This document shows, piece by piece, positions 804-60,942 of a DNA stretch of 64,000 nucleotides. The DNA is from Promethearchaeota archaeon (lineage in GTDB: Archaea; Asgardarchaeota; Heimdallarchaeia; Hodarchaeales; Hodarchaeaceae). The translations under genes were made by a program, and so were the position numbers. The stretch is from assembly GCA_048938105.1 (NCBI GenBank), contig JBHLMN010000010.1, forward strand, positions 152,937 to 216,936, in the 5' to 3' direction. Each line of letters opens with the position of its first letter. Position 1 is the first letter of the stretch. The notes beneath the pieces are model-generated. The model did not search any database and was not told the origin of the DNA. It saw only the letters and a list, made by a program, of their open reading frames with translations.

Positions 804-1403
804 TTGTATGGAGGAGGTTCAATAGAAGTGAAATTTGAAAGAAAACCCTTACCTTTACTAGTATGTCCAGTTGTTTTAGTTACTACACAAGATAAAAAGT
901 ATGATCGGGCAAATATAATAACGTTAACCCTTGTTGGTGGTTTTTGCTGGGAACCACCGATTATTGGAGTCGGGATTGGAAGAAGCCAATATTCTAAAGG
1001 ATTAATAGATCAAATTGGTGAATTTGTTGTCAATGTTCCTACAACTGAATTGATAGAAGACGTTGAATATTGTGGTCTTGTTTCTGGAAAAGACATTGAT
1101 AAATTTGCAAATACTAACTTTACTCCAGTCCCTTCTAAACATGTCAAACCACCAATGATCAAAGAATGTCCAATTAATCTGGAGTGTAAAGTAATAATGA
1201 GCATTCCACTTGGTTCAAATGTATTATTCCTTGGTAAAGTTGTATGTCTCCATGTTGATGAATCAATTCTTGATAGTAAGGGTGGAATGAATTTAATGAA
1301 AGCTAATCCTATTATGTTTAATTTAACGAATAGCTATTGGAGTGTGGGTGAAAAAATTGCCTCGTATGGATTCAGTAAATCTCAGAAAAATCTCATAGAT
1401 TAA
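804..1403 (+). CDS. Flavin reductase family protein (start probably GTG at 828)
   Basis: PVVLVTT, GEFVVNVP, CGLVSGKDIDKF and PPMIKECPINLEC motifs. Confidence 0.9.
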   Translation: MYGGGSIEVKFERKPLPLLVCPVVLVTTQDKKYDRANIITLTLVGGFCWEPPIIGVGIGRSQYSKGLIDQIGEFVVNVPTTELIEDVEYCGLVSGKDIDKFANTNFTPVPSKHVKPPMIKECPINLECKVIMSIPLGSNVLFLGKVVCLHVDESILDSKGGMNLMKANPIMFNLTNSYWSVGEKIASYGFSKSQKNLID

Positions 1404-2193
1404 AGAGGTCTTTAGCATTTTCAGTTAAAATTCTTTTTTTATTAGCATAAGAAATGGGGGCATATGTTACCTTGGTTTTTTCCCAAGTAATGTCACGAGC
1501 TCCCCATGGATAATCAGAACCAAATAATATCTTTTCAACACCCATAACATCCACAGCTTCAGCTAATCGGCGTGGATGGGGAATATAGGAACATTCAAGG
1601 AAGAGGTTGGGGTGATGAGCTGCCATTTCAATATGGGAGAAGCGATCGTTAAGACCATACTCTTCTTTCATGTGTAAACACACAAAAGTTCCATCCGAGT
1701 ATGTTTCTGCTAATGCTGCGATGTCCTTAACAGACCCTTCTGGCCCCCATCCGGAGTGGATCATAATAGGAAGCTCAAACTCAATTGCTTTTTCAACGAA
1801 AGGTTTCACAATAGGATCTGTGAGCTTGTACCCATCAAATACTGGATGTAGTTTTAACCCTCGAAAGTTTTTCTCTTCGATCAAATCTTGAAAATCGTCT
1901 GGAGAATCATACTTTGGATTAAGCCAAGCCACAAGTAGGAATCGTCGTTTCATTGGTTCAACTCGGGTGGCAAGTAACTCATTTTCTTGTCTCATTGACT
2001 CTTTTTTTGGCCCACAGAGTAAAACCGCTTCCGTTACATGAGCATTATTTAGAGCTGCCAAATACTCATCGAAGGAAGGAAGGTTTTTTGCATCTGAAAT
2101 GAAAAATGTAACGGGACTTAACGGAAAATGAGTATGTATATCAATTGTGGGAAGAAATTTTAACGATTCATCAGCCATTTGTCTCAATTCCAC
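1393..2193 (-). CDS. Amidohydrolase-2 family metal-dependent hydrolase
   Basis: IDIHTH, GLKLHP, IHSG and ILFGSDYP motifs. Confidence 0.9.
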   Translation of the reverse strand: MELRQMADESLKFLPTIDIHTHFPLSPVTFFISDAKNLPSFDEYLAALNNAHVTEAVLLCGPKKESMRQENELLATRVEPMKRRFLLVAWLNPKYDSPDDFQDLIEEKNFRGLKLHPVFDGYKLTDPIVKPFVEKAIEFELPIMIHSGWGPEGSVKDIAALAETYSDGTFVCLHMKEEYGLNDRFSHIEMAAHHPNLFLECSYIPHPRRLAEAVDVMGVEKILFGSDYPWGARDITWEKTKVTYAPISYANKKRILTENAKDLFNL

Positions 2194-4230: not shown

Positions 4231-4379
4231 AAAGAAACTAATAATTGCACTTAAAAGAATAATTTAGATTTAACTGAATAGAGACAATCACCCGAGAGAC
4301 AGTATACACATCTTAAAACGCAAAAAAGAATCAAGACGAAGATTTATCAAAGCTTAAAATAATCAACTGGCGCCCAAAG

Positions 4380-6008
4380 ATGACAAATTCAATCAAAAAT
4401 ACCTTATTAAACAATTATCAGGTGTTGATTGTACTATCGATAATTACGCTTTTTACTATTATTTCTGGTGTAATTTATTATCTAAGCCTCATTGAAGAAA
4501 ATCAGGAAGAGGAGAATAATCCATCTGATGAAATAAACAGTCCTGTATTCGATGGTTATAACTTATTCGTTCTCGAGGATAAAAATCTGCTAACCTTGAA
4601 TAGAAGCTTGAAACTTCTTATCACTGATATGGAAGGAGAAGTAATTATTGAAAAGGATTATCTTAAAGAACCTCGGGGATTAGATGTTTATCCTGTAGAA
4701 TTATTTAATACTACAACTGTGTTATTAGGCGCTGATGATGGAGCTGTCCTTTGGAATTTTGTAACAAATACAACATATGATTTGGGTTTTGAGGGACATC
4801 ATGATCTTGAATACAACGTTAATTATAACACATTTTTTACAATGAGCTGGTATGCAACTGAAATTGATGGGATTCTCTACGGTTTTGATGTTATTAAAGA
4901 GTACGATTGGCAAGGAAATTTACAATGGTCCCTCGACACACGGGAATTCGTTTCCCCGACAATGTGGTGCCCTTTTCAAGATAGCTATGGAGAAATCAGA
5001 GATCTAACTCATGGTAATACAGTCTTTTATGACTCCGAAGAAGATATTATTTATTATAATTCCCGTAATTGTAATACATTTTGGAAGATTGATCACAAGA
5101 CAGGCAGAATACTTTGGGCATTAGGAGAATATGGTGATTTTCAACTTTTCGACAGACGTGGAAATCTTCGAGAACATCTATTTTTTCATGCCCACTCTGT
5201 TGAAAAAATAGACGCTAATACATTCATTTTATTTGACAATGATATGCATAACCAGACGGATCCAACGAACTTTCGATCTCGTATTTTAGAGATTGTTGTT
5301 AACGAGACCACCATGACTGCCAACGAATCATGGGTATGGGCAGCTCCTGTGGAGTATTACACTAACATTTGGGGTGATGCAGACCGTCTACCAAATGGTA
5401 ATCGTTTGGGGACATTTGGAACGGAAACTCATCCCAACACTGACATTGGACCAAGATTAGTAGAGGTTACCAATGAGGGAGAGATCGTATGGGAGTTGAC
5501 TTATAGGACAACTGAAGATTATATGTATGGGATTTATCGCATGGAGCGATTTCGCTTTACTCCAACTCTCAGTTCTCAACCAAATATAAAGATGGTATCA
5601 ACAGATAGTGTTAACGTTAGCTGGCAAACATGGTTTAATTTCAGAACAAAACAACAAATGAAAGGACTTTATGCGATCTTCTTTGACGGTACGCTGATTG
5701 ATAGCGGTTTATACACGTTTGAAAAGTGGTGGCTCCCCTCCAACTTGGATGTTTCCTTAAATAATTTGTCACCAAGAAAACATAACTTAACAGTTGTACT
5801 CTCAGACATGATGGGAGGCTCCACACGTAATAGTGTCATCATTCACGACACCACGAGCTCTACAACCACTCAACAGACTAACCTGGAAACAACGACATCT
5901 TCAATGGCAAAAACAAGTAGCTTCTCTGGATTATTAGCCATTATATTGTTCATTAGCAGCCTAGTAGTATTCATTCAAATACGAAAGAAGAGAATAGAAT
6001 TAGAATAG
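4380..6008 (+). CDS. Arylsulfotransferase-like beta-propeller surface protein with C-terminal anchor
   Basis: GHHD, THGN, HAHS, LFDN and ADRLPNGN motifs; N-terminal TM; Thr-rich linker, TM and basic tail. Confidence 0.75.
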   Translation: MTNSIKNTLLNNYQVLIVLSIITLFTIISGVIYYLSLIEENQEEENNPSDEINSPVFDGYNLFVLEDKNLLTLNRSLKLLITDMEGEVIIEKDYLKEPRGLDVYPVELFNTTTVLLGADDGAVLWNFVTNTTYDLGFEGHHDLEYNVNYNTFFTMSWYATEIDGILYGFDVIKEYDWQGNLQWSLDTREFVSPTMWCPFQDSYGEIRDLTHGNTVFYDSEEDIIYYNSRNCNTFWKIDHKTGRILWALGEYGDFQLFDRRGNLREHLFFHAHSVEKIDANTFILFDNDMHNQTDPTNFRSRILEIVVNETTMTANESWVWAAPVEYYTNIWGDADRLPNGNRLGTFGTETHPNTDIGPRLVEVTNEGEIVWELTYRTTEDYMYGIYRMERFRFTPTLSSQPNIKMVSTDSVNVSWQTWFNFRTKQQMKGLYAIFFDGTLIDSGLYTFEKWWLPSNLDVSLNNLSPRKHNLTVVLSDMMGGSTRNSVIIHDTTSSTTTQQTNLETTTSSMAKTSSFSGLLAIILFISSLVVFIQIRKKRIELE

Positions 6009-8367: not shown

Positions 8368-8681
8368 GACATCTATTCAAACCAGATGAAGTGTCTCTTC
8401 TTTATAACTTATTTGATTGCAGAACAAATAATATTTTCTGTTGTAACTCCAATAACTCATGGTAACAATGAGATCTTTAATTTTTTTGAACATGCATCAA
8501 TAACAAACGCCGCTTCAATTGAAATACTAAGTTATTCCTCTTTTCCGTGATCCTCAAAGACTCCTTAAGGAGTTTCATGTTATCTTGAAAAAATTTAGAG
8601 GAATATTCTCTTTAATAAATCATCAGATATTTAAAGAAGAATATGATCAGTCAGTTATCATAAGTAAAAAATGGTGGTTGA

Positions 8682-33542: not shown

Positions 33543-34535
33543 TTATACAGTAATCTCGATGCTAAGTTTCCGTACTAGCTCTTTGTAGCGGTTTCGGACA
33601 GTTACCTCCGTAACATGGGCTACTTCACTGATTTCCCGTTGTGTTCGTCGTTCTCCATTGATTATTCCCGAGATGTAGATTGCTGCTGCCGCAAGTCCCG
33701 TTGGGTCTTTTCCTGCTGTCAGTCCTGCCGCTTTTGCCCGTTTTAGGATAGAGGCGGCTTTTCGTTGACACACGCCTGACAGTCGTAGTTCTGTTCCGAA
33801 TCGCACTAGGTAGTCTATGGGTGACGCTAGTGGGATGTTCAGGTACAGTTCGCGGAGGAGCAGTCGATAACATCTGCCTAGTTCTTTTTTGGTGATCCGT
33901 GATTCTTTTGCGATTTCGTCCAATGTTCGGGGTACACGTCGTACTCGTGCGGATGCGTAGATGGTCGCCGCGACCATAGCTTCGATCGATCGTCCCCGTA
34001 CTAGGCGTTTTTCGATTGCTTTCCGGTAGATGATTGCTGCGGTTTCCTTTACATTTCGTGGGATTCCCAGCTGGCTTGCTAACCTGTCCATTTCGGACAT
34101 TGCGAATGCCAGGTTTCTGTCCATGGACGAGTGGACTCGGGTCCGTATCTGCCATTTTCTGAGTCGGTAGATTTGTGCTCGCCGTGATGCTGACAGTTTA
34201 TTGCCGAATGTGTCCCGATTTTCGTATCCTATGATGGTTGAGAGTCCTTTGTCGTGTACTGAGAATGTTGATGGTGATCCCACCCGACTTCGTTTATCTC
34301 GTTCTTCTGAGTTAAATGCCCGCCATTCGGGTCCTTCATCGATCAGTCGTGTTTCCAGTACGTACCCGCATTTTTCGCAGATCAGTTCTCCCCGGTTTTC
34401 ATCTGCTACGATATCGGTTGACCCGCAATTTTTGCATTCGAGGATTTCTTCTTCGTCTTCTGCCGCTGCCTTTTTTTGGGGTTTCTCCTTGTCCCCTTTT
34501 ATGAGTGCCATTCTCTGTGGGCTCCTTTTAATCAT
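33543..34535 (-). CDS. tfb: Transcription initiation factor IIB
   Basis: Zn ribbon CKNC..CEKC, GPEWRAF, HDKGLST, LVRGRSIE, GKDPTGLAAAAIY and TEVTVRNRYKEL. Confidence 0.98.
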   Translation of the reverse strand: MIKRSPQRMALIKGDKEKPQKKAAAEDEEEILECKNCGSTDIVADENRGELICEKCGYVLETRLIDEGPEWRAFNSEERDKRSRVGSPSTFSVHDKGLSTIIGYENRDTFGNKLSASRRAQIYRLRKWQIRTRVHSSMDRNLAFAMSEMDRLASQLGIPRNVKETAAIIYRKAIEKRLVRGRSIEAMVAATIYASARVRRVPRTLDEIAKESRITKKELGRCYRLLLRELYLNIPLASPIDYLVRFGTELRLSGVCQRKAASILKRAKAAGLTAGKDPTGLAAAAIYISGIINGERRTQREISEVAHVTEVTVRNRYKELVRKLSIEITV

Positions 34536-35015
34536 TATGGTGAGTAGTTTTTTCTTGCGTGTGGTCTTCTTCTCTTTCTTTTTCTATGTTGTAGAGTGTG
34601 GTGTCTCCCATTTTCTTCTTCGAGAGTGTTCTTTTAATCACACTCAACATCGGAAAAAGTAGTACGCCATTCTGGAGTTATAATACTCTCTTATTCCTTT
34701 ATTAGATCTCAGAAAATTATAATTTATAAACCTTTACATAGATTTTTATACTACATAGTAGTTATCTTGCGGTCACGCCTTGCTTGAGCTCTAGTGGGCG
34801 TTATGGGGGATTTTCCTTTGGTATTTCTTTCGTTGGGGCTCGTCTTTTCGCTCTCTCTCGACTTGATGTCTATTCTGTTCTTTTGTCGGGACTGTTTTTG
34901 TTGTTCTCGGTTTTGTTTGCCTTTCTTTCTCTGGAAGGGGATTTTGTTGTCTCTGTTTCCAGTCTCTTCATCGATCCTTTGGATTTGTTCACCCAGTATG
35001 TGTTTAAGAATTTAC

Positions 35016-35151
35016 CCTTACGATGATAGTAATATGTTTTTCTCGACCGATTTCTCCGTGTTTTCTTTGGTCAGGTGCGCTGGGACTTTTCCCTATTTTC
35101 TCTTTTCTTTTTTGACCTGTCTTGATGATGTTTGATGTCGTATAACGTTGG
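35016..35151 (+). repeat. Dispersed repeat copy 1 (136 bp) ending in dif-like site A
   Basis: Highly similar to 36176-36311; 3' part also at 47734-47810. Confidence 0.9.
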
Positions 35152-35162
35152 ATAATGGAATA
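35135..35162 (+). other. dif-like site A: ATGTCGTATAA-CGTTGG-ATAATGGAATA
   Basis: 11-6-11 layout; left arm 10/11 identical to the XerC-type arm ATTTCGTATAA. Confidence 0.7.
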
Positions 35163-35296
35163 AACGTTCCGAACACATGTTAAGATGAATATCAAACTTT
35201 TGAGTCGCATCCATAATTCAGGGAGGGATAGCTATTTTGGACCATATTTTTATTGAGTAATGGCCAGAGTAGTCCTGACGCGAGTAAAAATTCAAA

Positions 35297-35324
35297 ATGC
35301 TCTTGAACCTTGGTACTATACCAA
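35297..35324 (+). other. dif-like site B: ATGCTCTTGAA-CCTTGG-TACTATACCAA
   Basis: Left arm resembles that of site G (TCTTGAA); 13 bp from the vapC stop. Confidence 0.5.
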
Positions 35325-35337
35325 TCTACATCTAGAT

Positions 35338-35760
35338 TTATTCCATTACTCGCGTGAGATTAAAAGTATCGAAATGCTTGTCAAAACTATAGATTTCAGT
35401 GAGATTCAAGCGGTCCATCAAAATTTTGGCTAACGAGTCATTAATCCCTACTTTATATCGTTGAGCGAGAACAGTGGCCCCTTGATAGTCACTATGGGGC
35501 ACATCGAGGACTGTAATCGATTCCTTTGTTAATAGATCATAAATGAATTGAGACGATTCACTATAACTCTTACGAGATTCTAAGATGTTTGCTACTTCTG
35601 ATAAATGTACAACACTAGTGACGACGTTTTCTCCATTATCCACTCGTGTGATAATCTCCCTCGCGACAGTTTTTATTCTTTCGAGATGTTTTGGGAGCTC
35701 TTGGATGGGCTCCAGAACCGCATATAAAAATATCGAAGCATCAATAAAACGAAGTTTCAT
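35338..35760 (-). CDS. vapC: PIN-domain toxin (VapC-like)
   Basis: FIDASIFLY, SEV, INDS and IYSFDKHFD motifs. Confidence 0.9.
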   Translation of the reverse strand: MKLRFIDASIFLYAVLEPIQELPKHLERIKTVAREIITRVDNGENVVTSVVHLSEVANILESRKSYSESSQFIYDLLTKESITVLDVPHSDYQGATVLAQRYKVGINDSLAKILMDRLNLTEIYSFDKHFDTFNLTRVME

Positions 35761-35996
35761 GCTTTGTCTCCACTAAGTAAATACTCCTTTAATTTATGGT
35801 AATCCGAATAGACTTCGGGGGGTATTTCAACCTTAAGGAATTGAAAATACTTTTGTAAATTGGGGTCATCTTTAGGGATGACTAAGAGAAGATCACCATC
35901 TTCAACTAGAAAAACTTCGTTTGATTGGATCTTTTTACGCCATTCAGGAGGTAAAACAACTCGCCCTTGAGAATCGATACGTTTAAGCTCAATCAT
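35757..35996 (-). CDS. AbrB/MazE-type antitoxin (start reassigned to MIELK)
   Basis: KRIDSQGRVVLPPEWRK motif; overlaps the PIN gene start. Confidence 0.85.
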   Translation of the reverse strand: MIELKRIDSQGRVVLPPEWRKKIQSNEVFLVEDGDLLLVIPKDDPNLQKYFQFLKVEIPPEVYSDYHKLKEYLLSGDKA

Positions 35997-36175
35997 AATG
36001 AACCCATATTCTAATGTCATTCCCCACTTTATAAAGCTGATCCCCAATTGTTCTTCGTGATTACCATGTAACTTTATATGAAATATTAATCTAAATCGAT
36101 ATTGAATTGGTGGGTTTCGTATCTTCATTCCAGTCATCTTAACTATCACTTTGATGCTCTTTCAACAAAAAAAAG

Positions 36176-36311
36176 CCTTACGATGATAGTAGTATGTTTT
36201 TCTCGACGAGCTCTCCTTGTTTTCCTTGGTCTTGTACGCTGGGCCTTTTCCCCTGTTTTCTCTTTTCTTGTTTGACCTGTCTTGATGATGTTTGATGTCG
36301 TATAGCGTTGG
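36176..36311 (+). repeat. Dispersed repeat copy 2 ending in dif-like site C
   Basis: Direct repeat of 35016-35151. Confidence 0.9.
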
Positions 36312-36322
36312 TCAAATACATT
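36295..36322 (+). other. dif-like site C: ATGTCGTATAG-CGTTGG-TCAAATACATT
   Basis: Repeat homology stops exactly after the CGTTGG spacer. Confidence 0.65.
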
Positions 36323-36474
36323 AAGGTTATTATAGAAAAAATATATCTTTGAATTTAATTTTAGAATTAATTCTGAAAAATCCCATTAATTCTCTTTATT
36401 TTGATTGAGCCAGTGAATTCTATTTTGTGCTTTGGATAAATGGTTTTAATTTTTCAATAAAAGTTAAAGAACAG

Positions 36475-36502
36475 TTCTGAAGAAACGTTGGGTAGGTCTA
36501 TT
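36475..36502 (+). other. dif-like site D: TTCTGAAGAAA-CGTTGG-GTAGGTCTATT
   Basis: About 38 bp ending in this spacer are duplicated at ~39967-40005; abuts the MFS stop codon. Confidence 0.55.
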
Positions 36503-37805
36503 TTCTAAGAATGACAAAAATTATAGAGAGAAAACTCGCACCAATTAGACAAAATCCTCCAATATTTGTTACAAAAGATAAAGATTGGCCATTGATAAGG
36601 AGTAATGAGCCAAAAAATGATCCAATTCCGAAAGACATAATTCCAATCGTTTGTAATGTACTAATAATGGTTTCTTGTTGCATATTATGCTCGTGTGGGT
36701 GATCATGAATTCCTATAACGATGGAAGCACTTCCACTAAAGCCTAAATCAAGATGTTTATGAGAATGAGAATAACCTTGAGTTACTTCTATTTCTAATAC
36801 AGCTTTATTTCGTGCTGGTTCTAAAAAACCTTCTGCAAGCCCTGCTAAGAATAAGATTAAAAACAAGTAGAGAATAATACTGATTTCTGGATAAAAGAAA
36901 ACCACGATCCCTTTTGCTAACAGACTAAAGATTAATGGTAATGATGATCCAACCTTGTCAACCAAGCGTCCTGTAAATATTTGGCTAATCCCCCATGTTA
37001 TATCTCCCACTAAATATCCTAAACTAATACCAACCTCAGATATTCCTCCTTGCTGATTCAATAAGATAGAAAGATTAGGTGTATAAATTCCATGTGCAAA
37101 ATCATAAATAATGTAAATTAGTATTACCAATAAAATAGAAGGACCCATAAGGAGAGTTCGTATTCCCTGTTTGATGTGGAAATGTTGCCATTTCCATCCA
37201 TTTAAAGACTTGGATTTTGATTGATTTTCCCTGACTCTAATTAAATTAAGGATAATAATCAAAATGAATGTTATTATAAACATTAAACCAGAAACTATCT
37301 GTATTGACTGATCTGCTGGTATTTGATATTCTAAAAGTATTGCCCAAAATATTCCTGCAACCCCTTGCCCTAAAGCCAGTCCACTAAGTACCGCAGCAAA
37401 AAGATTTCCAAGAACTTCGCCCTCTCTTTTTTCAAAGTTTGAAGCGAGAGCTATAATTCCTAAAAAGATGAACCCATACCCTAGTCCATCGAAAATCCTG
37501 ATAAGAGTAAGGATATAAGGGTCACTCAAGATAGTCATTGAACCCGTTATAAGAAGAACTGATAATCCTCCTAACAGGAAGCGATGAGTATTTGATATAA
37601 TAATTTTACAAAGTACCATAAAACTGATAATCTGGCCGATTGAGAAGAGTGTACTTGCTATTGAGATTAGAGAAACATCCCCTCCAATATTAATAACCTG
37701 AAAAGGGAATAAAAATCGAAAACACCCCAAACTTAATGAAATCCCAAAAAGCAGTAAAAAATATTTCTGTATGTTTTTATCAGTCAAGATCAACCAAGAA
37801 GACAA
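36498..37805 (-). CDS. MFS transporter with His-rich loop
   Basis: GRLVDKVG motif A; HSHKH...HDHPHEH insert. Confidence 0.85.
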   Translation of the reverse strand: MSSWLILTDKNIQKYFLLLFGISLSLGCFRFLFPFQVINIGGDVSLISIASTLFSIGQIISFMVLCKIIISNTHRFLLGGLSVLLITGSMTILSDPYILTLIRIFDGLGYGFIFLGIIALASNFEKREGEVLGNLFAAVLSGLALGQGVAGIFWAILLEYQIPADQSIQIVSGLMFIITFILIIILNLIRVRENQSKSKSLNGWKWQHFHIKQGIRTLLMGPSILLVILIYIIYDFAHGIYTPNLSILLNQQGGISEVGISLGYLVGDITWGISQIFTGRLVDKVGSSLPLIFSLLAKGIVVFFYPEISIILYLFLILFLAGLAEGFLEPARNKAVLEIEVTQGYSHSHKHLDLGFSGSASIVIGIHDHPHEHNMQQETIISTLQTIGIMSFGIGSFFGSLLLINGQSLSFVTNIGGFCLIGASFLSIIFVILRK

Positions 37806-38009
37806 AATAGCTAGTTCCTATCAATTTTAAATGATAAATAATATTATAATGAGGACATTTATCCTTTGATTATATATTGTATATCTGGAACAGGAGGAAG
37901 ATCTGGTTTTCAGGGCTGATATAGAATTCTTTAATCTTCAAAAAACTTTTTGTCTTCTTTTTTTAAGTTTCTATGATCAATTCTACAAGAAAATCATCAC
38001 AAGAAGGAA

Positions 38010-38534
38010 GTGATTCTCATGATTTGGGTAACAAGAAATTATGTCCATGTAGACAGAGTTGCATGTCCTTGGTTGATTCAACGATTTGTAGATAAGGATG
38101 CAGAATTCCTGTTTGTTCCTGCGAATGAGGTAGAGACAGTGGCAAATGCGGTCGGAGGAGTTCCATTTGATATTCCAGGGGTAGAATTAACCCATAGGGG
38201 AAAGGAATGCTCCTTCGATGCAATTATTCAAAAATATAAGTTAATAGAATCCGCTCTACTAGATCTCGCAGAAGTTGTTAGAATTGCAGATACAGGTGGA
38301 GAAGATCCTAATCTGATTGCTGCAGGTTTGGACGCCATCGCTACTGGCGTCCCTCTGATCACTACAAATGATCATGCTGCCCTTCAACAACAGATGGTTG
38401 TCTATGATGCTCTATTAGCCTTCTTCCGATACAAAAGATTGATGGCACAATATGTGGATGAAACGAAGAATATGACCCGAGCAGAACGAAAAGCCTTCTA
38501 TCAGAAGCATTATGGAACCAATGTTGATACTTAA
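38010..38534 (+). CDS. ChrB-domain (chromate resistance) protein
   Basis: WVTR..HVDRVACPWLI.RFVD.DAEF; THRG..CSFDAI; RIADT. Confidence 0.88.
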   Translation: MILMIWVTRNYVHVDRVACPWLIQRFVDKDAEFLFVPANEVETVANAVGGVPFDIPGVELTHRGKECSFDAIIQKYKLIESALLDLAEVVRIADTGGEDPNLIAAGLDAIATGVPLITTNDHAALQQQMVVYDALLAFFRYKRLMAQYVDETKNMTRAERKAFYQKHYGTNVDT

Positions 38535-38614
38535 GAAAGGGATAACCAGAAATTGTGAAGTATGCATAACATAATTGTTAAGGTTAGTCAGGGTCACCAA
38601 AACGGACATGGTTA

Positions 38615-39832
38615 GTGATGGGGTCAAAGCAAGTTCATTCCACCTTTTCTCAGCGTTCATTTTATGTTATTTGCATCATGGGAACGATTGCCATTCTTAG
38701 TAGTACCATGGCAAAAAATCCCACTCTTCCCCTCTTTGCTGGTCAATTGGGCGCAACAGAATGGCAACTTGGGATCATCGCGGCAATTGGGCCAATTCCT
38801 GGCATACTCTTGAGTGCACCTGCCGGAGTATTCGCCGACCGCTGGGGACGGATTCAAATGATACAACTATCACTATTCTTTTTTGCTACTGCTCCCCTTT
38901 TTTATCTATTTGTGACAGAACCTTGGCAACTCGTCCCAGTACGATTCTTTCACGGGCTAGCGACTGCTATTTTCGGCCCAGTAATCTTATCACTTATTGC
39001 TTCGTACTATCCGTTCGAACGAGCAAGTCGAATGAGTCTGTATTCATCCGTGACCATGATAGGCCGAGTAATGGCCCCCCTATTTGCGGGGTTTTTAATT
39101 TCTATAGGGTCAATTTTTGTAGTCTACTTAGTTTGTGGTATTTCTGGGGGTTTAGCCCTGTTCCTAGGACTGACCTTACCTCGCCAGCTCCTAGACCAAC
39201 CAAACCAAGCTGATTCTCTAAGGACAAGTCCTGTGGCTAGTTTATGGAGTACAATCCGTAATCATAACATTTTGGTAACTAGTTCTATGGAAGCAGTGCA
39301 ATTCTTTGCTATAGGGGCATTTGAAACCTTTTTGCCTAAACGAATGGAATCTTTTGAATGGGATCCAATGTTCATAGGTATTGTTATGGCTTGTCAAATT
39401 AGCGCGATGATTCTTTTTAAGCCCCTTATGGGAATGGTATCCGATAAGTGGCAGAGAAAACCTCTCATTGTCATTGGCCTATTGATCTGCGCAAGTTCTT
39501 TTCTACTCCTCGGATCTTTTCAAAATTTCGTGATCATCAGTGTAGGTTCACTTGGTTTTGGAGCGGGAGTTGCCATAGCAACTGCATCGACTACAGCTCT
39601 GGTTTCAGATTTCAGTAAAGAACGGGAATATGGTTCAGCAATTGGAACCCTATCATCAATTATGGATGTGGGTCATTCACTTGGGCCTTTTGTATGTGGA
39701 TTTGCTATCAGTAGCATGGGCTTTTCCACAACATGTGTGGGCGTAGCCCTACTTATCGTCATTGGTACAATTATTTTTACCATTTTAGTTCAATCCCCCT
39801 CTGTTCAAACTTCCCCTCAACCCCTCACCTAA
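38615..39832 (+). CDS. MFS transporter
   Basis: GVFADRWGR and GMVSDKWQRK motif A; about 12 TMs. Confidence 0.92.
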   Translation: MMGSKQVHSTFSQRSFYVICIMGTIAILSSTMAKNPTLPLFAGQLGATEWQLGIIAAIGPIPGILLSAPAGVFADRWGRIQMIQLSLFFFATAPLFYLFVTEPWQLVPVRFFHGLATAIFGPVILSLIASYYPFERASRMSLYSSVTMIGRVMAPLFAGFLISIGSIFVVYLVCGISGGLALFLGLTLPRQLLDQPNQADSLRTSPVASLWSTIRNHNILVTSSMEAVQFFAIGAFETFLPKRMESFEWDPMFIGIVMACQISAMILFKPLMGMVSDKWQRKPLIVIGLLICASSFLLLGSFQNFVIISVGSLGFGAGVAIATASTTALVSDFSKEREYGSAIGTLSSIMDVGHSLGPFVCGFAISSMGFSTTCVGVALLIVIGTIIFTILVQSPSVQTSPQPLT

Positions 39833-39990
39833 AAAATTCGAAAAATATGTGTAGAGTGATTCAAGCAGAAGAAGTCCAACAATATTCATGATATCCCAAT
39901 TAATGTGCCAGAAACCAACTGCTACAAAATTATCCCCAAAGGTTAGAACAATGTAGTTACAAAAAATTTTCAATAAAAGTTAAAGAACAG

Positions 39991-40018
39991 TTCTGAAGAT
40001 ACGTTAGATAATGAAATC
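39991..40018 (+). other. dif-like site E: TTCTGAAGATA-CGTTAG-ATAATGAAATC
   Basis: Left flank shared with site D; right arm resembles that of site A. Confidence 0.6.
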
Positions 40019-40072
40019 AATGTTAAGACTAATGGTCAAACATCTATTACTGTGTCTAGTATTTATCTGGTA

Positions 40073-40921
40073 CTAATCCCGTCTAGCACTTGATAACATT
40101 TTCACCCATTCAGGGTCTCTATGATTAAAAAAGGCACTCTTTTTCTGATCTAGAGATGTAATTTTACTCATATCTTCCTTGTTCAATTCAAAATTAAAAA
40201 CGTTGAAATTCTCAATTATCCTCTCCTTGTGAACTGATTTGGGAATTGCAATTACGTCTCTCTGGATAAGCCATCGCAAAGTCACCTGGGCATTTGATTT
40301 ATTATACTTTTCACCAATTGAAGCTAGTACCTCATTTTGGAACAAGTTGTTTCTTCCCTCAGCGAATGGACCCCAGGACTCAATCTGAACATTATATTCC
40401 TGCATTATTTTCTCACTCTCTATCTGTTGGTTAAAAGGATGAGTCTCGACCTGGTTAACTGCAGGAGTTATATTATTGTGAAGTATAAAATCAATTAAAC
40501 GATTAGGATAAAAATTGCTAACACCAATAACTCTGATTTTTCCTTCCTCGTATAGTTCTTCCATTGCACGCCAGGATCCATACACATCACCAAAAGGTTG
40601 ATGAATAAGATAGAGATCAACATAATCCATTTCTAACCTGTTTAATGATTTTTCAAACTGTTGTTTGGTATTATTATAATTCGCATATGGACTCCAGAGT
40701 TTAGTAGTTATGAATAGTTCATCTCGGGGAATTGAGCTTGACTGAACGGCTTTTCCAACCGCGTTTTCATTTCCATATGCAAAAGCGGTATCAATTAATC
40801 GGTATCCAGTATCAATCGCTGTTCTAACGCTCTGTTCACATAATTTAAGGTCTTTTATCTGGTAGACCCCAAATCCCAATATGGGCATTTTAATTCCGTT
40901 GTTAAGTGTTATAAATTTCAA
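40073..40921 (-). CDS. Aldo/keto reductase (2,5-diketo-D-gluconate reductase-like)
   Basis: GYRLIDTA..Y, TTKLW, DLYLIH, IGVSNF and IPKS motifs. Confidence 0.95.
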   Translation of the reverse strand: MKFITLNNGIKMPILGFGVYQIKDLKLCEQSVRTAIDTGYRLIDTAFAYGNENAVGKAVQSSSIPRDELFITTKLWSPYANYNNTKQQFEKSLNRLEMDYVDLYLIHQPFGDVYGSWRAMEELYEEGKIRVIGVSNFYPNRLIDFILHNNITPAVNQVETHPFNQQIESEKIMQEYNVQIESWGPFAEGRNNLFQNEVLASIGEKYNKSNAQVTLRWLIQRDVIAIPKSVHKERIIENFNVFNFELNKEDMSKITSLDQKKSAFFNHRDPEWVKMLSSARRD

Positions 40922-40997
40922 TGGATATTCCTTCTAACTTCGTTCTTATTAGTTATTCTAGTAATCACATATAAATTTTAAGTACGAGATTATAATA

Positions 40998-41025
40998 AAC
41001 ATATAATACAATGGCTATCATGTCC
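40998..41025 (+). other. Possible dif-like site F: AACATATATAA-CAATGG-CTATCATGTCC
   Basis: TATAA followed by a spacer one mismatch from CATTGG; weak right arm. Confidence 0.3.
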
Positions 41026-41095
41026 AACCTTCTTGTAGCGAGAAGTATCTCTTTTCGAGACCAACCATAAGTTCTCAGATTAAGACTAGGTTATT

Positions 41096-41123
41096 CATGT
41101 CTTGAACATTGGTTATACGACAT
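41096..41123 (+). other. dif-like site G: CATGTCTTGAA-CATTGG-TTATACGACAT
   Basis: Right arm is the exact reverse complement of the site A left arm. Confidence 0.7.
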
Positions 41124-41247
41124 TCTACTCAAATAGAAGTAATTTTCCATCATCCAGCTTAGCTACTTTATTCACAATATACAGATAAGACTTTAATAAA
41201 AAGAATTGTAAAATCTGCACTAAAAAAAACAGCCATTCCCTCCTCAA

Positions 41248-42447: not shown

Positions 42448-42528
42448 TTGTTAAGAAACGTTGGTTTTATTCATTCTTTAATTAAAAGTTAATTAATAAG
42501 ATGTCAAAAAGTGTTGGAAATTCACACT
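42448..42528 (+). other. Pair of degenerate dif-like sites H (TTGTTAAGAAA-CGTTGG) and H2 (ATGTCAAAAAG-TGTTGG), 53 bp apart
   Basis: Left arms resemble those of sites D and A; spacing matches the 52-bp units. Confidence 0.45.
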
Positions 42529-42603
42529 AACCTCCGTAAATTCCAATTAACTTGTAAAAAATTCATATAACTAGCAGAAGACTACCTCATTTAGAGCTGT
42601 TTA

Positions 42604-44520
42604 TTACTTTGACGGAATTTGTTCCCCCTGTCCTTTTGTAGATGAACTTGGGGTTGTGTCTTTTCCCCCTACACTTGCAACAAGACTGATCGCTTCCTCG
42701 AGGTAGGTTTTTATGCGAGCTTGTTCAATACGATCTACAAGCGGAGATTTATTTTTCGTAATTGATATCCACTTATCAACTTCTGCTTTGAGAGAATTCT
42801 GTTCGTTTACAACTTGGTTAGAAAGTGATTTAAGTCCTTTCTCCTGAGTAATATTCGCTGCTTGATCAAGGAGGTTGAAAGCTTGTTCAATGTCCAGATC
42901 GAGGAGAGACAACTTGGATTGAAGGATTAAAGTATGCGCCAATAAGAATTTTGAGTTCTGTTGTCTTGCGATTTCATTCAGCATGCTAACATATTCACGT
43001 AGGTTTTGGAGAGATTCTGGTTTCTCAATAAACTTGAGCTCTATTAATAGTAATTCACATGCATTGAGTAGAGCGAGTTGTTTTAGATCCTGAGGAAGAT
43101 ACTCTTCTGTAACCAGTTCCTGAACTGTTCTCAGAGATAGGGCGATCTCGAGCATGTCCTTGTTATGTTTTTGAATCATAGCTTCTCCTAATTTAGCTCT
43201 AAATTTCATCACATTGTGTCCCATCCTCCCACTCAACTCCTTCAATTCCTCTAGGTAATCATTTGCTACCTGGATTTGCTTCATTTCAAGGGTCAGGATA
43301 ATCAGCTGAAAAAGAACTATCGCTGTTTGATAGTTATTTTTACTTTCTCTAAACAATTGAAGTGCTAGAACAAATTGCTTGAGGGCGTTTTTACGATCTC
43401 CAGTCATTTGGAAGTTTCTACCGAGCGTGAACCTTGTATACCCAATGTTTAAATTTTCACCAATGTCTTCAGCTAAAGCTAGTGCCTTTTTATGATGCCT
43501 GATAGCAACCATTGGTTCTCCTTTGAGATTGGCACATAATCCCATGCCAATCATTGTTGAGACGACTCCTCGTTTGTTATCGAGTTCCTGAAAGATGTCA
43601 AGGCTTTTGTTGAAGTATTCTAGTGCAATTTCCAGTTCACCAACTTCACGATATTCAATTCCAATCCAGCGAAATAGTTCAGCAATGTGAGACTGTTCAC
43701 CAAGCTCCTCAGCTGCCTTCAAGCTCCTGTTAAAATAATCGTGAGCTAATTCCTGACTCCCCTTTTGAAGATGTATAGACCCAACCGAAGTAGCCCACCA
43801 AGATAGTTCACGTTTAATGTCTAAGTCTTCAGCGATTTCTAGACTTCGTTGGTAAAAATCAAGTGCAAGATCAAGGTCTCCTTTCAAATCATGAATGGTA
43901 CCTATTTTATGGAGGAGATAGTGTAAAATCCATTTGTACTCCAGCTCCTCTGAGATGTCTAAGCCCCTGACCAGAAGTTTCATTGCCTCTTTGAATTTCC
44001 CAAGGTCTCTATAATGAATTGCGGCATTGTTCAAGAGTGGTGGGAGAAACCATCTCTCATCACTTTCCTCAAGAATTTGTATACCTTCTAATTCACTCTC
44101 CAAAGCCAAGGTGATTTCCCCTCTCTCACTGAAAAGTAATCCTCTAGCCACGAAAAGCATAGCTTCCCAAAGCCTAGCATCCAGACGTTCTTCCTTGTTC
44201 ATCAATCCCAGAAGTTCTTCTGCCCGATCAAGATCTTTGTGTCCTCTTTCAGTATCCCAATCCCCCCACCAGAAATAAACCAACTTTGTAGCTATCGCAG
44301 CTACCTCGAGGATCTTTGTTTCTTTTTCTCGGCATTCCTTTTGGACGTGCTCTAGAAACTCAATCCCTTGTTCCCGAGTTCTTTGGCCGCTTAGTAGCCA
44401 AAAAAAAGCCTTTAAAACCTCCCCTTCTAGTTTATCTTCAGCATTGAGCTTGTTGATCTTGTTCAAAGCTTCAGAAAACTTTCCTTTAGCCCAAAGATCT
44501 TTGATTTCTGGGATTCTCAC
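42604..44520 (-). CDS. Tetratricopeptide repeat protein (Asgard-expanded type)
   Basis: Multiple G....G....AL.Y...SL.I TPR repeats. Confidence 0.9.
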   Translation of the reverse strand: MRIPEIKDLWAKGKFSEALNKINKLNAEDKLEGEVLKAFFWLLSGQRTREQGIEFLEHVQKECREKETKILEVAAIATKLVYFWWGDWDTERGHKDLDRAEELLGLMNKEERLDARLWEAMLFVARGLLFSERGEITLALESELEGIQILEESDERWFLPPLLNNAAIHYRDLGKFKEAMKLLVRGLDISEELEYKWILHYLLHKIGTIHDLKGDLDLALDFYQRSLEIAEDLDIKRELSWWATSVGSIHLQKGSQELAHDYFNRSLKAAEELGEQSHIAELFRWIGIEYREVGELEIALEYFNKSLDIFQELDNKRGVVSTMIGMGLCANLKGEPMVAIRHHKKALALAEDIGENLNIGYTRFTLGRNFQMTGDRKNALKQFVLALQLFRESKNNYQTAIVLFQLIILTLEMKQIQVANDYLEELKELSGRMGHNVMKFRAKLGEAMIQKHNKDMLEIALSLRTVQELVTEEYLPQDLKQLALLNACELLLIELKFIEKPESLQNLREYVSMLNEIARQQNSKFLLAHTLILQSKLSLLDLDIEQAFNLLDQAANITQEKGLKSLSNQVVNEQNSLKAEVDKWISITKNKSPLVDRIEQARIKTYLEEAISLVASVGGKDTTPSSSTKGQGEQIPSK

Positions 44521-44791
44521 TCTCTAAAACACCCTCATTTCTCTCAATCCTATTTACTGAATTCTTGGTAAATTAATGAATTCATGCCCTTTGAAAATTA
44601 TAAGTTAAGCTATAATTATAAATTGATTTTATTACAATCTGGGAACACTTAACCTAGTAGTTTCCTTCATAATCCCCAGCGAAAATCCCTCCAGTTTTAT
44701 CCTCCAGTTTTATAGTGTTCTAACCTCTATATGAGATTCGATATACTTTTCATTGCGTTTCATAATGGGATTGAATCTTGATAAGGATTGG

Positions 44792-44871
44792 GAAAGTAGT
44801 AACATTGGATATGTTAGCAAAAATACGTATATTGATATGTATAATGTACTATAACGTTGGATATATCAATG
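44792..44871 (+). other. dif-like sites I (GAAAGTAGTAA-CATTGG-ATATGTTAGCA) and J (ATGTACTATAA-CGTTGG-ATATATCAATG) enclosing a 52-bp unit
   Basis: Unit 44803-44854 is 48/52 identical to 63762-63813. Confidence 0.7.
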
Positions 44872-47733: not shown

Positions 47734-47810
47734 TGGGACTTTTCCCCTGTTTTCTCTTTTCTTTTTTGACCTGTCTTGATGATGTTTGATGTCGTATAGC
47801 GTTGGATAAT
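47734..47810 (+). repeat. Dispersed repeat copy 3 (truncated) ending in dif-like site K
   Basis: Near-identical to 35081-35156. Confidence 0.9.
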
Positions 47811-47816
47811 ACACAT
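47789..47816 (+). other. dif-like site K (attL of the integrative element): ATGTCGTATAG-CGTTGG-ATAATACACAT
   Basis: About 55 bp upstream of the RHH-recombinase operon. Confidence 0.75.
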
Positions 47817-47872
47817 TTATTATAGCAAAATTATATAAGCAGTTATATTATCTCTATTCTTAGTGAAATTGA

Positions 47873-48343
47873 GTGGCACCTAGAAAGGCAAAGAGTTCTA
47901 AATCTAAAAAAATGATTACTTTTATGTTAGATGAAGAAATAAGATTAAGGATTGACGAGTATTGTAAGAATAGTCAATTGAGTTTAGCCCAATTTATACG
48001 ATTAGCTATAATTGAGAAATTGGAAGGGAAAGTGATTGATAAAAGTGATCAAGTCGAGATAATTGATACTTCTAATATTGATCATGCTTTAACACAACTT
48101 CAACAAGAACAAACAAAGATTTCACAAATGCTAGAGTTCCTGATAGATCAACAACAAAAAGAAAATGCAACACAATCAAAGATAGTTATTGAAGCAAAGC
48201 AATTATTATTGGAAAAACAACCAACAACCTATGAAGAAGCTAATGAGTTCATTCCTGATATTAACACAATGAATGAAGCAATTAATCAACTTCTCCAAGA
48301 AAATAAAGTCATTTATAAAAGGAGTAAGCTTAATTGGCTTTAA
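47873..48343 (+). CDS. Ribbon-helix-helix (CopG-like) DNA-binding protein with coiled coil
   Basis: MITFMLDEE...IDEYC....SLAQFIRLAIIEKL. Confidence 0.75.
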   Translation: MAPRKAKSSKSKKMITFMLDEEIRLRIDEYCKNSQLSLAQFIRLAIIEKLEGKVIDKSDQVEIIDTSNIDHALTQLQQEQTKISQMLEFLIDQQQKENATQSKIVIEAKQLLLEKQPTTYEEANEFIPDINTMNEAINQLLQENKVIYKRSKLNWL

Positions 48344-49203
48344 CCACTTCCTCATCTTCAGACCAAATGATTGAAGATTTTATCCTCTCACAAAATTTAA
48401 GTGAAAACACAGTAAAAAGTTATAGAAGTTTACTTAATAATTTTTTTAGATATTTAAATGATAGAGAATTGACTAGAAAAGATGTTGCTATATTCGTTAA
48501 AAAGGAAAAACAAAAAGGATTAGCAGATGGAACAATAAAAGCAAAATTAACAGTAATACGATGTTACGCGAAATGGTTATGGGAAGAAGATTTACTTTTG
48601 AGTAAAGAATATAAGAAAATTTTAGGATTGAAAATTAAGTTAGATTATGGAGAAGATGGGAGGAGAGCATTAACAGAAGAAGAGATTGAATTAGGTTATA
48701 ATAAACTTGTAAATCCAATATTAAGAATGCTATTCTGGACTGGATTGAATTACGGACTAAGAAGAAGTGAATACATTAACTTAAAGATGGATGACATCGA
48801 CCTATTGAACAGGATTGTAACGATCAGGCATTCTAAGGGGAATAAAACTCGAAGAATCAAAATTCTCAAAACTCACGTCCCAGTTTGGAGAGATTGGTTT
48901 GTTACGAGAGATTCATATCAGTTAGATCATGATTTTGTGTTTTTTACAGATCGAGGGAGAGCTGGAACGCGAAGTATTGAACGGTATTTCAACAAAATCA
49001 GTGAAATTTTACTAGGAAATAAGGAAATTACAAGTCATACACTACGCTACACTTTTGCAGTCAGATGTTGGCGTTCTGAAATGGATTTATTAGTATTGAG
49101 TAAAATTTTGGGTCATTCTAATTTACGAACTACTCAAACTTACCTAAGGGTTATTGAACATGAGATTTTAGAAAAATATGAAGAGCAAGCATCGAGAATC
49201 TAA
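48334..49203 (+). CDS. XerC/D/XerA-like tyrosine recombinase
   Basis: LSENTVKSY N-domain; GLRRSE, KGNKTR, HTLRYTFA and LGHSNLRTTQTY catalytic motifs. Confidence 0.95.
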   Translation: MALTTSSSSDQMIEDFILSQNLSENTVKSYRSLLNNFFRYLNDRELTRKDVAIFVKKEKQKGLADGTIKAKLTVIRCYAKWLWEEDLLLSKEYKKILGLKIKLDYGEDGRRALTEEEIELGYNKLVNPILRMLFWTGLNYGLRRSEYINLKMDDIDLLNRIVTIRHSKGNKTRRIKILKTHVPVWRDWFVTRDSYQLDHDFVFFTDRGRAGTRSIERYFNKISEILLGNKEITSHTLRYTFAVRCWRSEMDLLVLSKILGHSNLRTTQTYLRVIEHEILEKYEEQASRI

Positions 49204-60914: not shown

Positions 60915-60942
60915 ATGTGCAATATCGTTGGATATATCCCAG
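60915..60942 (+). other. dif-like site L (attR): ATGTGCAATAT-CGTTGG-ATATATCCCAG
   Basis: Left arm is 9/11 inverse of the site K right arm; right flank ATATATC...GAACTT shared with site J. Confidence 0.7.

Follow-up and report, generated by a model that had tools for sequence, protein, structure and literature searches.

The dif sites recognised by archaeal XerA consist of two 11-bp arms around a 6-bp spacer and are cleaved at the spacer borders (PMC2958812, PMC3646895, PMC8371274). In Acinetobacter, the plasmid/chromosome dif (pdif) modules are thought to be moved by XerC/XerD (PMC6449649, PMC13141974, PMC12907356). The integrative mobile elements exploiting Xer (IMEX), which include the CTX and TLC phages and the gonococcal genetic island, have been reviewed (PMC5357621), and integrons have been described together with archaeal integrons and clusters of attC sites lacking integron integrases (CALINs; PMC9668308). 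The literature searched contained no paper on Xer-type cassette arrays in archaea. Here we analyse a stretch of 64,000 nucleotides (the window) from the genome of a Hodarchaeaceae archaeon, in which an array of gene cassettes lies beside tfb, the gene for a TFIIB-type transcription factor. Two mirror-image 11-mers within this array are probably high-affinity half-sites of a Xer/dif-type 11-6-11 site that belongs to a genus-wide system of mobile cassettes, and not the two halves of one split site. The pdif modules are the closest known system, with IMEX and integrons as more distant analogues.

The genome (G000 below) comprises 5.85 Mb in 65 contigs, and the window is C56:152937-216936, at the end of contig C56; other G numbers denote related genomes and C numbers contigs. 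Comparisons were made with 20 or 21 genomes of the same genus and with 19 genomes from outside it. The left arm of one junction in the array (site A) is ATGTCGTATAA, and the right arm of a second junction about 6 kb away (site G) is TTATACGACAT, its exact reverse complement. Both arms abut a 6-bp core, and the two cores share the same (+) polarity. The first-pass annotation had described these arms as exact reverse complements around CRTTGG, and this was borne out, although the ambiguous base masks a mismatch, the core being CGTTGG at site A and CATTGG at site G. The word itself is not enriched: with both strands counted, the genome contains five exact copies of the 11-mer, where about 7.8 are expected from composition. 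Four of these five copies adjoin CRTTGG in the correct register, compared with an expectation of 0.003, and the mirror pair is therefore real and chance is excluded. When up to one mismatch was allowed, the window contained seven copies against 1.3 expected, a number reached in none of 100 shuffles. No complete 28-mer (arm, core and arm) was present inside the window itself.

Comparison of repeated DNA places the crossover at the core. The 136-bp module on the left side of site A is repeated at 36176-36311, its last 70 bp are repeated at approximately 47736-47805 and at C3:7321-7457, and in all copies similarity ends at the end of CGTTGG. From the right, a 190-bp segment following the leftmost junction of the array (34837-35027) is repeated at C11:160811-161009 with 89% identity, and here the similarity begins exactly at the core. 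This segment is T/G-rich and without an open reading frame (ORF); one copy stands beside tfb, and the other close to the end of C11, the contig on which the conserved neighbours of tfb are found. The 45-bp left module of site C is repeated in this and other genomes, and one right arm, TCAAATACATT, has two unrelated left modules as partners (at window 36306 and C3:11749).

A breakpoint junction was defined as a site with one flank homologous to a repeat family and the other flank unrelated. Approximately 45 such junctions with the same core were found genome-wide, and across them the homology of 45-bp left modules and of several right-flank families likewise stops at the core. The left arms of 42 unique junctions yielded the consensus ATGTC(A/G)T(T/A)TAA, while the right arms form a weaker mirror of this consensus, in which the inner TTA is strong. 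On average, left arms had 5.7 matches to the arm and right arms 4.8, compared with a background of 3.0, and both arms scored at least 8 of 11 in four of the approximately 45 junctions. Such pairing of a good arm with a degenerate one is typical of Xer-type sites carried by mobile DNA.

Two further features of the arms and flanks were observed. Right-flank families bear a TATA-box-like TTTATATAA about 15-20 bp past the core (for example at C7:5665, C9:7746 and C61:204591, and at window 47806-47840), so that many cassettes seem to begin with a portable arm-plus-promoter unit. A 13-kb integrase-bearing element in the window has junctions at 47789-47816 and 60915-60942, from which its attP can be rebuilt as ATGTGCAATAT-CGTTGG-ATAATACACAT, with arms that are mirror images at 9 of 11 positions. 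Seven right flanks elsewhere in the genome, of the type TTATTGCACAT (TTATTGCACATCT...), mirror the slightly different attP arm ATGTGCAATAT, so that a second arm 'dialect' shares the same core.

The cassettes of the window were found in other species of the genus at identities well above those of the surrounding genomes. In these species, ordinary chromosomal DNA shows 65-86% identity to the window, whereas the tetratricopeptide repeat (TPR) cassette reaches 92% in both G018 and G011, the aldo/keto-reductase (AKR) cassette has a 96%-identical copy at G011:C31:8443-9464, and the PIN-MazE toxin-antitoxin cassette has a 98%-identical copy at G014:C344:88-953. The contexts of these copies differ. 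Homology of the TPR cassette ends at C(G/A)TTGG in all three genomes and the DNA differs beyond; the AKR copy lies between different junctions, and the PIN-MazE copy in another context. Identities of 92-98% over such a background indicate that the cassettes are mobile and have recently been exchanged between species. The modules that carry the arms have also moved. Window 35146-35199, the right-hand side of site A, is matched at 91-94% by G020:C182, G020:C106 and G011:C28, in each case beginning at the core. At G020:C190 the 133-bp module of site G stands right of a CGTTGG core whose left arm is entirely different. An inverted copy of the site G module, at G014:C344:955-1087, terminates the PIN-MazE cassette in the position that the 136-bp module occupies in G000. 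This inverted copy abuts the opposite side of the core and has two additional A's (ATGTCGTATAA-AA-CGTTGG), and the two polarities may represent cassette flipping or an 8-bp spacer variant.

An intact two-armed site is present in the genome on another contig. The site at C53:230098-230125 (minus strand, ATGTCGTTAAA-CGTTGG-TTATACGACAT) is near-perfect and the best of its kind in the genome. It lies between unrelated accessory genes within another co-oriented array; its left flank is a widely repeated module, and both flanks are portable modules. Two-armed CGTTGG sites were also found in the sister species G002, G012 and G014. The arm palindrome with any spacer occurs in 13 of 20 same-genus genomes and in none of the 19 genomes outside the genus, and a reversed-pattern control gave no match in any genome that had an arm-palindrome match. 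The intact site, the two-armed sites of relatives and the genus-wide palindrome together make the rebuilt 28-mer credible as the ideal substrate of a homomeric recombinase. The first-pass annotation had proposed it as such a target, and possibly as the chromosomal dif; the first part survives as a plausible substrate, and the second is not supported.

We propose that the site consists of an 11-bp arm, the asymmetric 6-bp overlap CGTTGG and a second 11-bp arm, and that it would be used by genus-wide mobile gene cassettes and small integrative elements in a probable Hodarchaeales host. Recombination within the 6-bp core or at its edges would cause left and right flanks to reassort, and the region from tfb toward its conserved neighbours would have been filled with co-oriented cassettes that have hybrid junctions between them. 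The consensus left arm of site A and the consensus right arm of site G would each travel with a portable module of 70-136 bp. As each arm has its own portable module, the mirror symmetry would reflect selection for binding by a homomeric recombinase rather than descent from one site. The sequence comparisons show the geometry, the crossover at the core, the movement of cassettes between species and the presence of an intact two-armed site; from these we infer that a tyrosine recombinase binds the arms as a homodimer.

Several observations weigh against this interpretation. The exact 28-mer, searched with W at the variable arm positions, gave no match in metagenome and species-genome collections. 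A scan of the same collections with the 17-mer of arm plus core gave 85 loci, close to a roughly estimated chance number; a few low-GC contigs among these look related, and none bears the mirror arm. The assembled sequences compared contained neither an excised circle nor an empty site, nor an A-by-G recombinant. The two polarities of the site G module relative to the core (G000 and G020 compared with G014) are unpredicted by simple recombination at an asymmetric core. On one side, the high-identity cassette bodies often leave 20-120 bp between their end and the core, which suggests that the terminal modules are also exchanged by another route. Finally, both arms are poor at sites C and D and at the junction at 42459, so that arm binding alone does not account for every junction; these junctions may be decayed, or other determinants may exist.

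Three genes with the tyrosine recombinase domain PF00589 are present in the genome, and the third, on C45, has an internal TAG stop. The gene at C14:173949-174839 encodes a canonical host XerA, which scores 205 bits to Pyrococcus XerA (PDB 4A8E). The recombinase of the 13-kb element (window 48334-49203) is a divergent Xer-like integrase, scoring 79 bits to the PDB XerA and 27% identical to the host XerA. When these two proteins were compared with the PDB, the best match was XerA or XerD, and IntI4 was weaker. A XerA-like gene is present in 20 of 21 genus genomes, and matches of at least 33% identity to the window integrase in 6 of 21. Near-identical cassettes occur in G011, G014 and G018, which have no such close match to the window integrase, and this leans to host XerA. 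Other Xer-like integrases adjoin arrays in G009 and G011, which counts against settling on the host enzyme. In the single-contig genome G009 (4.9 Mb), a small ORF and a 277-aa Xer-like recombinase at G009:C1:737263-738530 resemble the pair of RHH-like gene and recombinase in the window, and the pair (locus positions 4263-5530) lies 3 kb from two adjacent CGTTGG sites and mini-cassette copies (locus positions 8379-8458). On present sequence comparisons both host XerA and element-encoded Xer-like integrases acting in trans are candidates for the enzyme. We put forward more tentatively, as a suggestion that may well prove wrong, that the 28-mer (ATGTCGT-W-W-AA, CGTTGG, TT-W-W-ACGACAT) would be the optimal substrate of host XerA, that the genus-wide, integrase-less cassettes would be an archaeal counterpart of dif modules exploiting Xer, and that rare two-armed sites, such as the one at C53:230098 and the decayed site G, would be active capture points.

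A different role for site G was considered, in which it is or was the active two-armed insertion point of the array, a mobile or array-internal site and not dif. Cassettes A to D would then have been added serially, each leaving behind a junction whose left arm is good and whose right arm is poor, and regenerating the insertion point. Sites A and B have arms of the predicted kind. The left arm of site G reads ATGTC-TTGAA with a one-base gap, and would thus be a one-base-deleted member of a recurrent arm type, so that site G may be a decayed two-armed site in its own right; arms resembling it, of the form ATGTCNNTGAA, occur at C9:96840, C53:226147 and C61:206438. However, the left arms of sites C and D are poor, and good left arms resume to the right of site G, at 44844, 47789 and 63751. 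The site G module is present in other contexts in two other species, and the sole fully intact site in the genome is on another contig (C53:230098), in an array whose arm pattern is not the one expected of such an insertion point. We therefore consider this explanation unlikely.

The first-pass annotation had read ATGTCGTATAA-CRTTGG-TTATACGACAT as a single chromosomal site beside tfb, possibly dif, with the intervening 6 kb as successive insertions into it. The arms are indeed exact mirrors, the layout is that of the archaeal dif (PMC2958812), and the interval is composed of separate cassettes, yet the distribution of the modules makes this explanation very improbable. The site A module is present four times, with one copy to the right of site G (36176-36311 and 47736-47805 being the further copies in the window), and the site G module is portable in two other species. 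Five left arms in the window would pair with the right arm of site G within two mismatches. A pair of attL and attR sites would have chromosomal DNA outside it, element DNA between its members and identical overlaps. Outside sites A and G there are cassettes on both sides (34831; 42459 to 63751), with the conserved flank on C11, and the overlaps are CGTTGG and CATTGG. The array starts at 34831 at the latest and continues for at least 23 kb past site G to the end of the contig. The 6 kb are a row of separately mobile modules with hybrid junctions, as had been suggested, but their insertion into one ancestral site is not supported.

The tfb locus was recovered in eight relatives, in which the orthologues are 95-97% identical at the amino-acid level. 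Six relatives have a conserved gene block 0.5-4 kb after tfb; in G000 the orthologues of its genes are on contig C11, where they lie behind 17 kb of further variable DNA. An uninterrupted palindrome had been expected near tfb in relatives, and none of the eight has one within the approximately 15 kb scanned upstream of tfb, including the near-empty 475-bp gap of G001. Insertion breakpoints upstream of tfb in relatives follow ACTAGAGAAA, without the CRTTGG core. Intact palindromic sites in relatives, which the first-pass annotation required near tfb or elsewhere, are thus absent from the first place but present in the second. The end of C11 was considered as a strain variant of the tfb locus and ruled out, its terminal ORF being a membrane protein and not TFB. 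No tRNA or non-coding RNA target was found.

Two side observations concern tfb itself. The 475-bp gap between tfb and its neighbour in G001:C11 (positions 1024-1499, reverse strand, tfb leftmost) is G/A-rich with several inverted stretches, and may hold a small structured RNA. In several relatives (G004:C135, G019:C137, G020:C101, G017:C184 and G001:C11) tfb is followed within a few kb downstream by two to four further copies of its final 50-70 bp (window 33543-33614), each standing before a small unrelated ORF (for example at locus positions 800-870 and 1490-1560 of G004:C135). This looks like a second tandem-insertion array, targeting the tfb 3' end. No extra copies of the tfb 3' end were found in G000.

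The properties of the motif also differ from those of a chromosomal dif. An imperfect 11-6-11 palindrome is seen in both the rebuilt 28-mer and the C53:230098 site. The motif is multi-copy and dispersed, with its approximately 45 same-core junctions in many arrays, and the palindromes of relatives are in unrelated contexts, with neither locus nor flanks conserved; the motif was found in none of the 19 genomes outside the genus, and the proposal of a single-copy dif is not supported. The GC-skew profile of the window and of the 217-kb contig is noisy, flat and without a turn, and the 65-contig assembly prevents the terminus from being placed. The tfb-adjacent locus is probably not a chromosome-resolution site, and the A and G junctions are probably not siblings. 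A second class of palindrome, ATGTCGTAAAA-N6-TTTTACGACAT, was considered as the true dif; it shows no synteny, has variable spacers and has one copy tied instead to an SRPBCC-like gene. About 11 genomes of the genus have one or two copies each (positions in G000 are C14:250384, C14:86371 and C52:447500), the spacer differs in every copy, and in both G000 and G012 the palindrome precedes the same SRPBCC-like gene by approximately 145 bp. This class may represent an operator, a further type of recombination site, or dif.

It is also very improbable that the palindrome is a protein operator, for instance a transcription-factor site in portable promoter modules with only incidental adjacency to CGTTGG, for although arm-bearing modules lie upstream of cassette genes, right flanks carry the TATA-like TTTATATAA, and the related palindrome with a different spacer precedes the SRPBCC-like gene in both G000 and G012, four of five 11-mer copies adjoin the core in a fixed register, homology breaks at the core and not at the arms, and the 11-6-11 spacing is that of tyrosine-recombinase sites.

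The layout of the array from tfb to the recombinase of the 13-kb element is given in Table 1. Cores of the form C(G/A)TTGG start at 34831, 35146, 36306, 36486, 40002 (CGTTAG), 41107, 42459, 44803, 44855, 47800, 60926 and 63762, and all strong sites in the window are in the same orientation. Further genes are an unknown 236-aa ORF after the reductase, a PKD-domain protein after the TPR protein and an RHH-like gene before the recombinase.

Table 1. Junctions, modules and genes of the cassette array, in window coordinates
Feature	Position	Strand	Basis
tfb (TFIIB-type transcription factor), conserved gene left of the array	33543-34535	-	Pfam
Leftmost recognisable junction, core CGTTGG (34831-34836), and 190-bp gene-less segment	34831-35027	+	Repeated near end of C11
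136-bp module bearing the site A left arm, copy 1	35016-35151	+	Repeat copies
Left arm of site A, ATGTCGTATAA	35135-35145	+	Equals consensus left arm
Core (overlap) CGTTGG of site A	35146-35151	+	Homology with other module copies ends exactly here
Weak right arm of site A (ATAATGGAATA) and flank; portable right-hand module beginning at the core	35152-35199	+	
PIN (VapC-like) and MazE/AbrB-like toxin-antitoxin cassette	35338-36149	-	Pfam
Copy 2 of the site A module (36176-36311), then site B, ATGTCGTATAG-CGTTGG-TCAAATACATT (36295-36322)	36176-36322	+	
Site C, TTCTGAAGAAA-CGTTGG-GTAGGTCTATT, both arms weak	36475-36502	+	
Cassette of MFS (-), ChrB_C (+) and MFS (+)	36498-39832	.	Pfam; bounded by 45-bp repeats 36448-36494 and 39964-40010
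Site D, decayed junction, core CGTTAG (40002-40007)	39991-40018	+	
AKR cassette	40067-41088	-	Pfam
Site G: decayed left arm, core CATTGG (41107-41112), right arm TTATACGACAT (41113-41123)	41096-41123	+	
133-bp portable module bearing the site G right arm (its first 11 bases)	41113-41246	+	
Next junction right of site G, core CGTTGG (42459-42464)	42448-42475	+	
TPR-protein cassette ending at core CATTGG (44803-44808)	42582-44811	-	
Junction ATGTACTATAA-CGTTGG-ATATATCAATG	44844-44871	+	
Copy 3 of the site A module, then junction ATGTCGTATAG-CGTTGG-ATAATACACAT; right of site G	47736-47816	+	
Xer-like tyrosine recombinase, 289 aa, of the neighbouring 13-kb element	48334-49203	+	Pfam

With the archaeal dif/XerA system the sites described here share 11-bp inverted arms, a 6-bp spacer, and arms that end in TAA on the left and begin with TTA on the right; a homomeric recombinase is expected and a canonical XerA gene is present. 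In contrast to dif, which is single-copy, placed at the terminus and conserved in its flanks, the site is present in tens of copies without synteny, and its best copy is inside a cassette array. The pdif modules offer a closer likeness. They are small accessory modules (toxin-antitoxin and metal or efflux modules among them) bounded by 28-bp 11-6-11 Xer-type sites and without their own recombinase, they are shuffled between replicons and species, and one arm is better conserved than the other. The PIN-MazE, MFS/ChrB, AKR and TPR modules likewise lie between 28-bp Xer-type sites without a recombinase of their own, and the same module is found in different contexts with breakpoints at the site. 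Unlike pdif sites, which alternate in orientation (XerC-XerD, then XerD-XerC), the sites here are co-oriented. The host is an archaeon with a single homomeric XerA rather than XerC and XerD, and the action of the enzyme is here a prediction; the arrays are chromosomal and extend over tens of kb, and the 45-136-bp flanking modules are themselves portable.

The resemblance to IMEX would lie in integrase-less DNA at a Xer-type site, in tandem arrays, and in hybrid junctions with one good and one degenerate arm. IMEX pile up at one chromosomal dif, whereas here there are many arrays, and some neighbours carry a Xer-like integrase (window 48334-49203; G009:C1:737951). Integrons similarly have co-oriented arrays of promoter-poor or single-gene cassettes, crossover at a short conserved core, and related terminal repeats common to unrelated cassettes, like VCRs. 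They differ in that no IntI-type integrase was found among the two PF00589 proteins compared with the PDB, and in that cassette genes here are on both strands. No attC-like hairpins were detected at the junctions, where DNA folding gave z-scores of -1.2 to +0.6 relative to shuffles, and there was no Rfam match.

The contribution of the mirror pair is thus an 'ideal site', set beside evidence for modules shared across species, and it corrects the attractive but probably wrong inference of a resolution site adjacent to tfb. Base for base, the pair defines the likely ideal substrate of a system by which accessory genes, among them genes for toxin-antitoxin, efflux or metal, reductase and TPR proteins, would be moved inside species and from one species to another in an Asgard genus. 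A descriptive pattern thereby becomes a substrate that could be tried at the bench, and Pyrococcus XerA provides a precedent for offering synthetic sites and half-sites to a purified enzyme (PMC3646895). If the 28-mer is the optimum of the host XerA, it would be a defined substrate that can be synthesised, and would allow gene capture driven by Xer to be tested for the first time in the lineage of archaea that is closest to eukaryotes.

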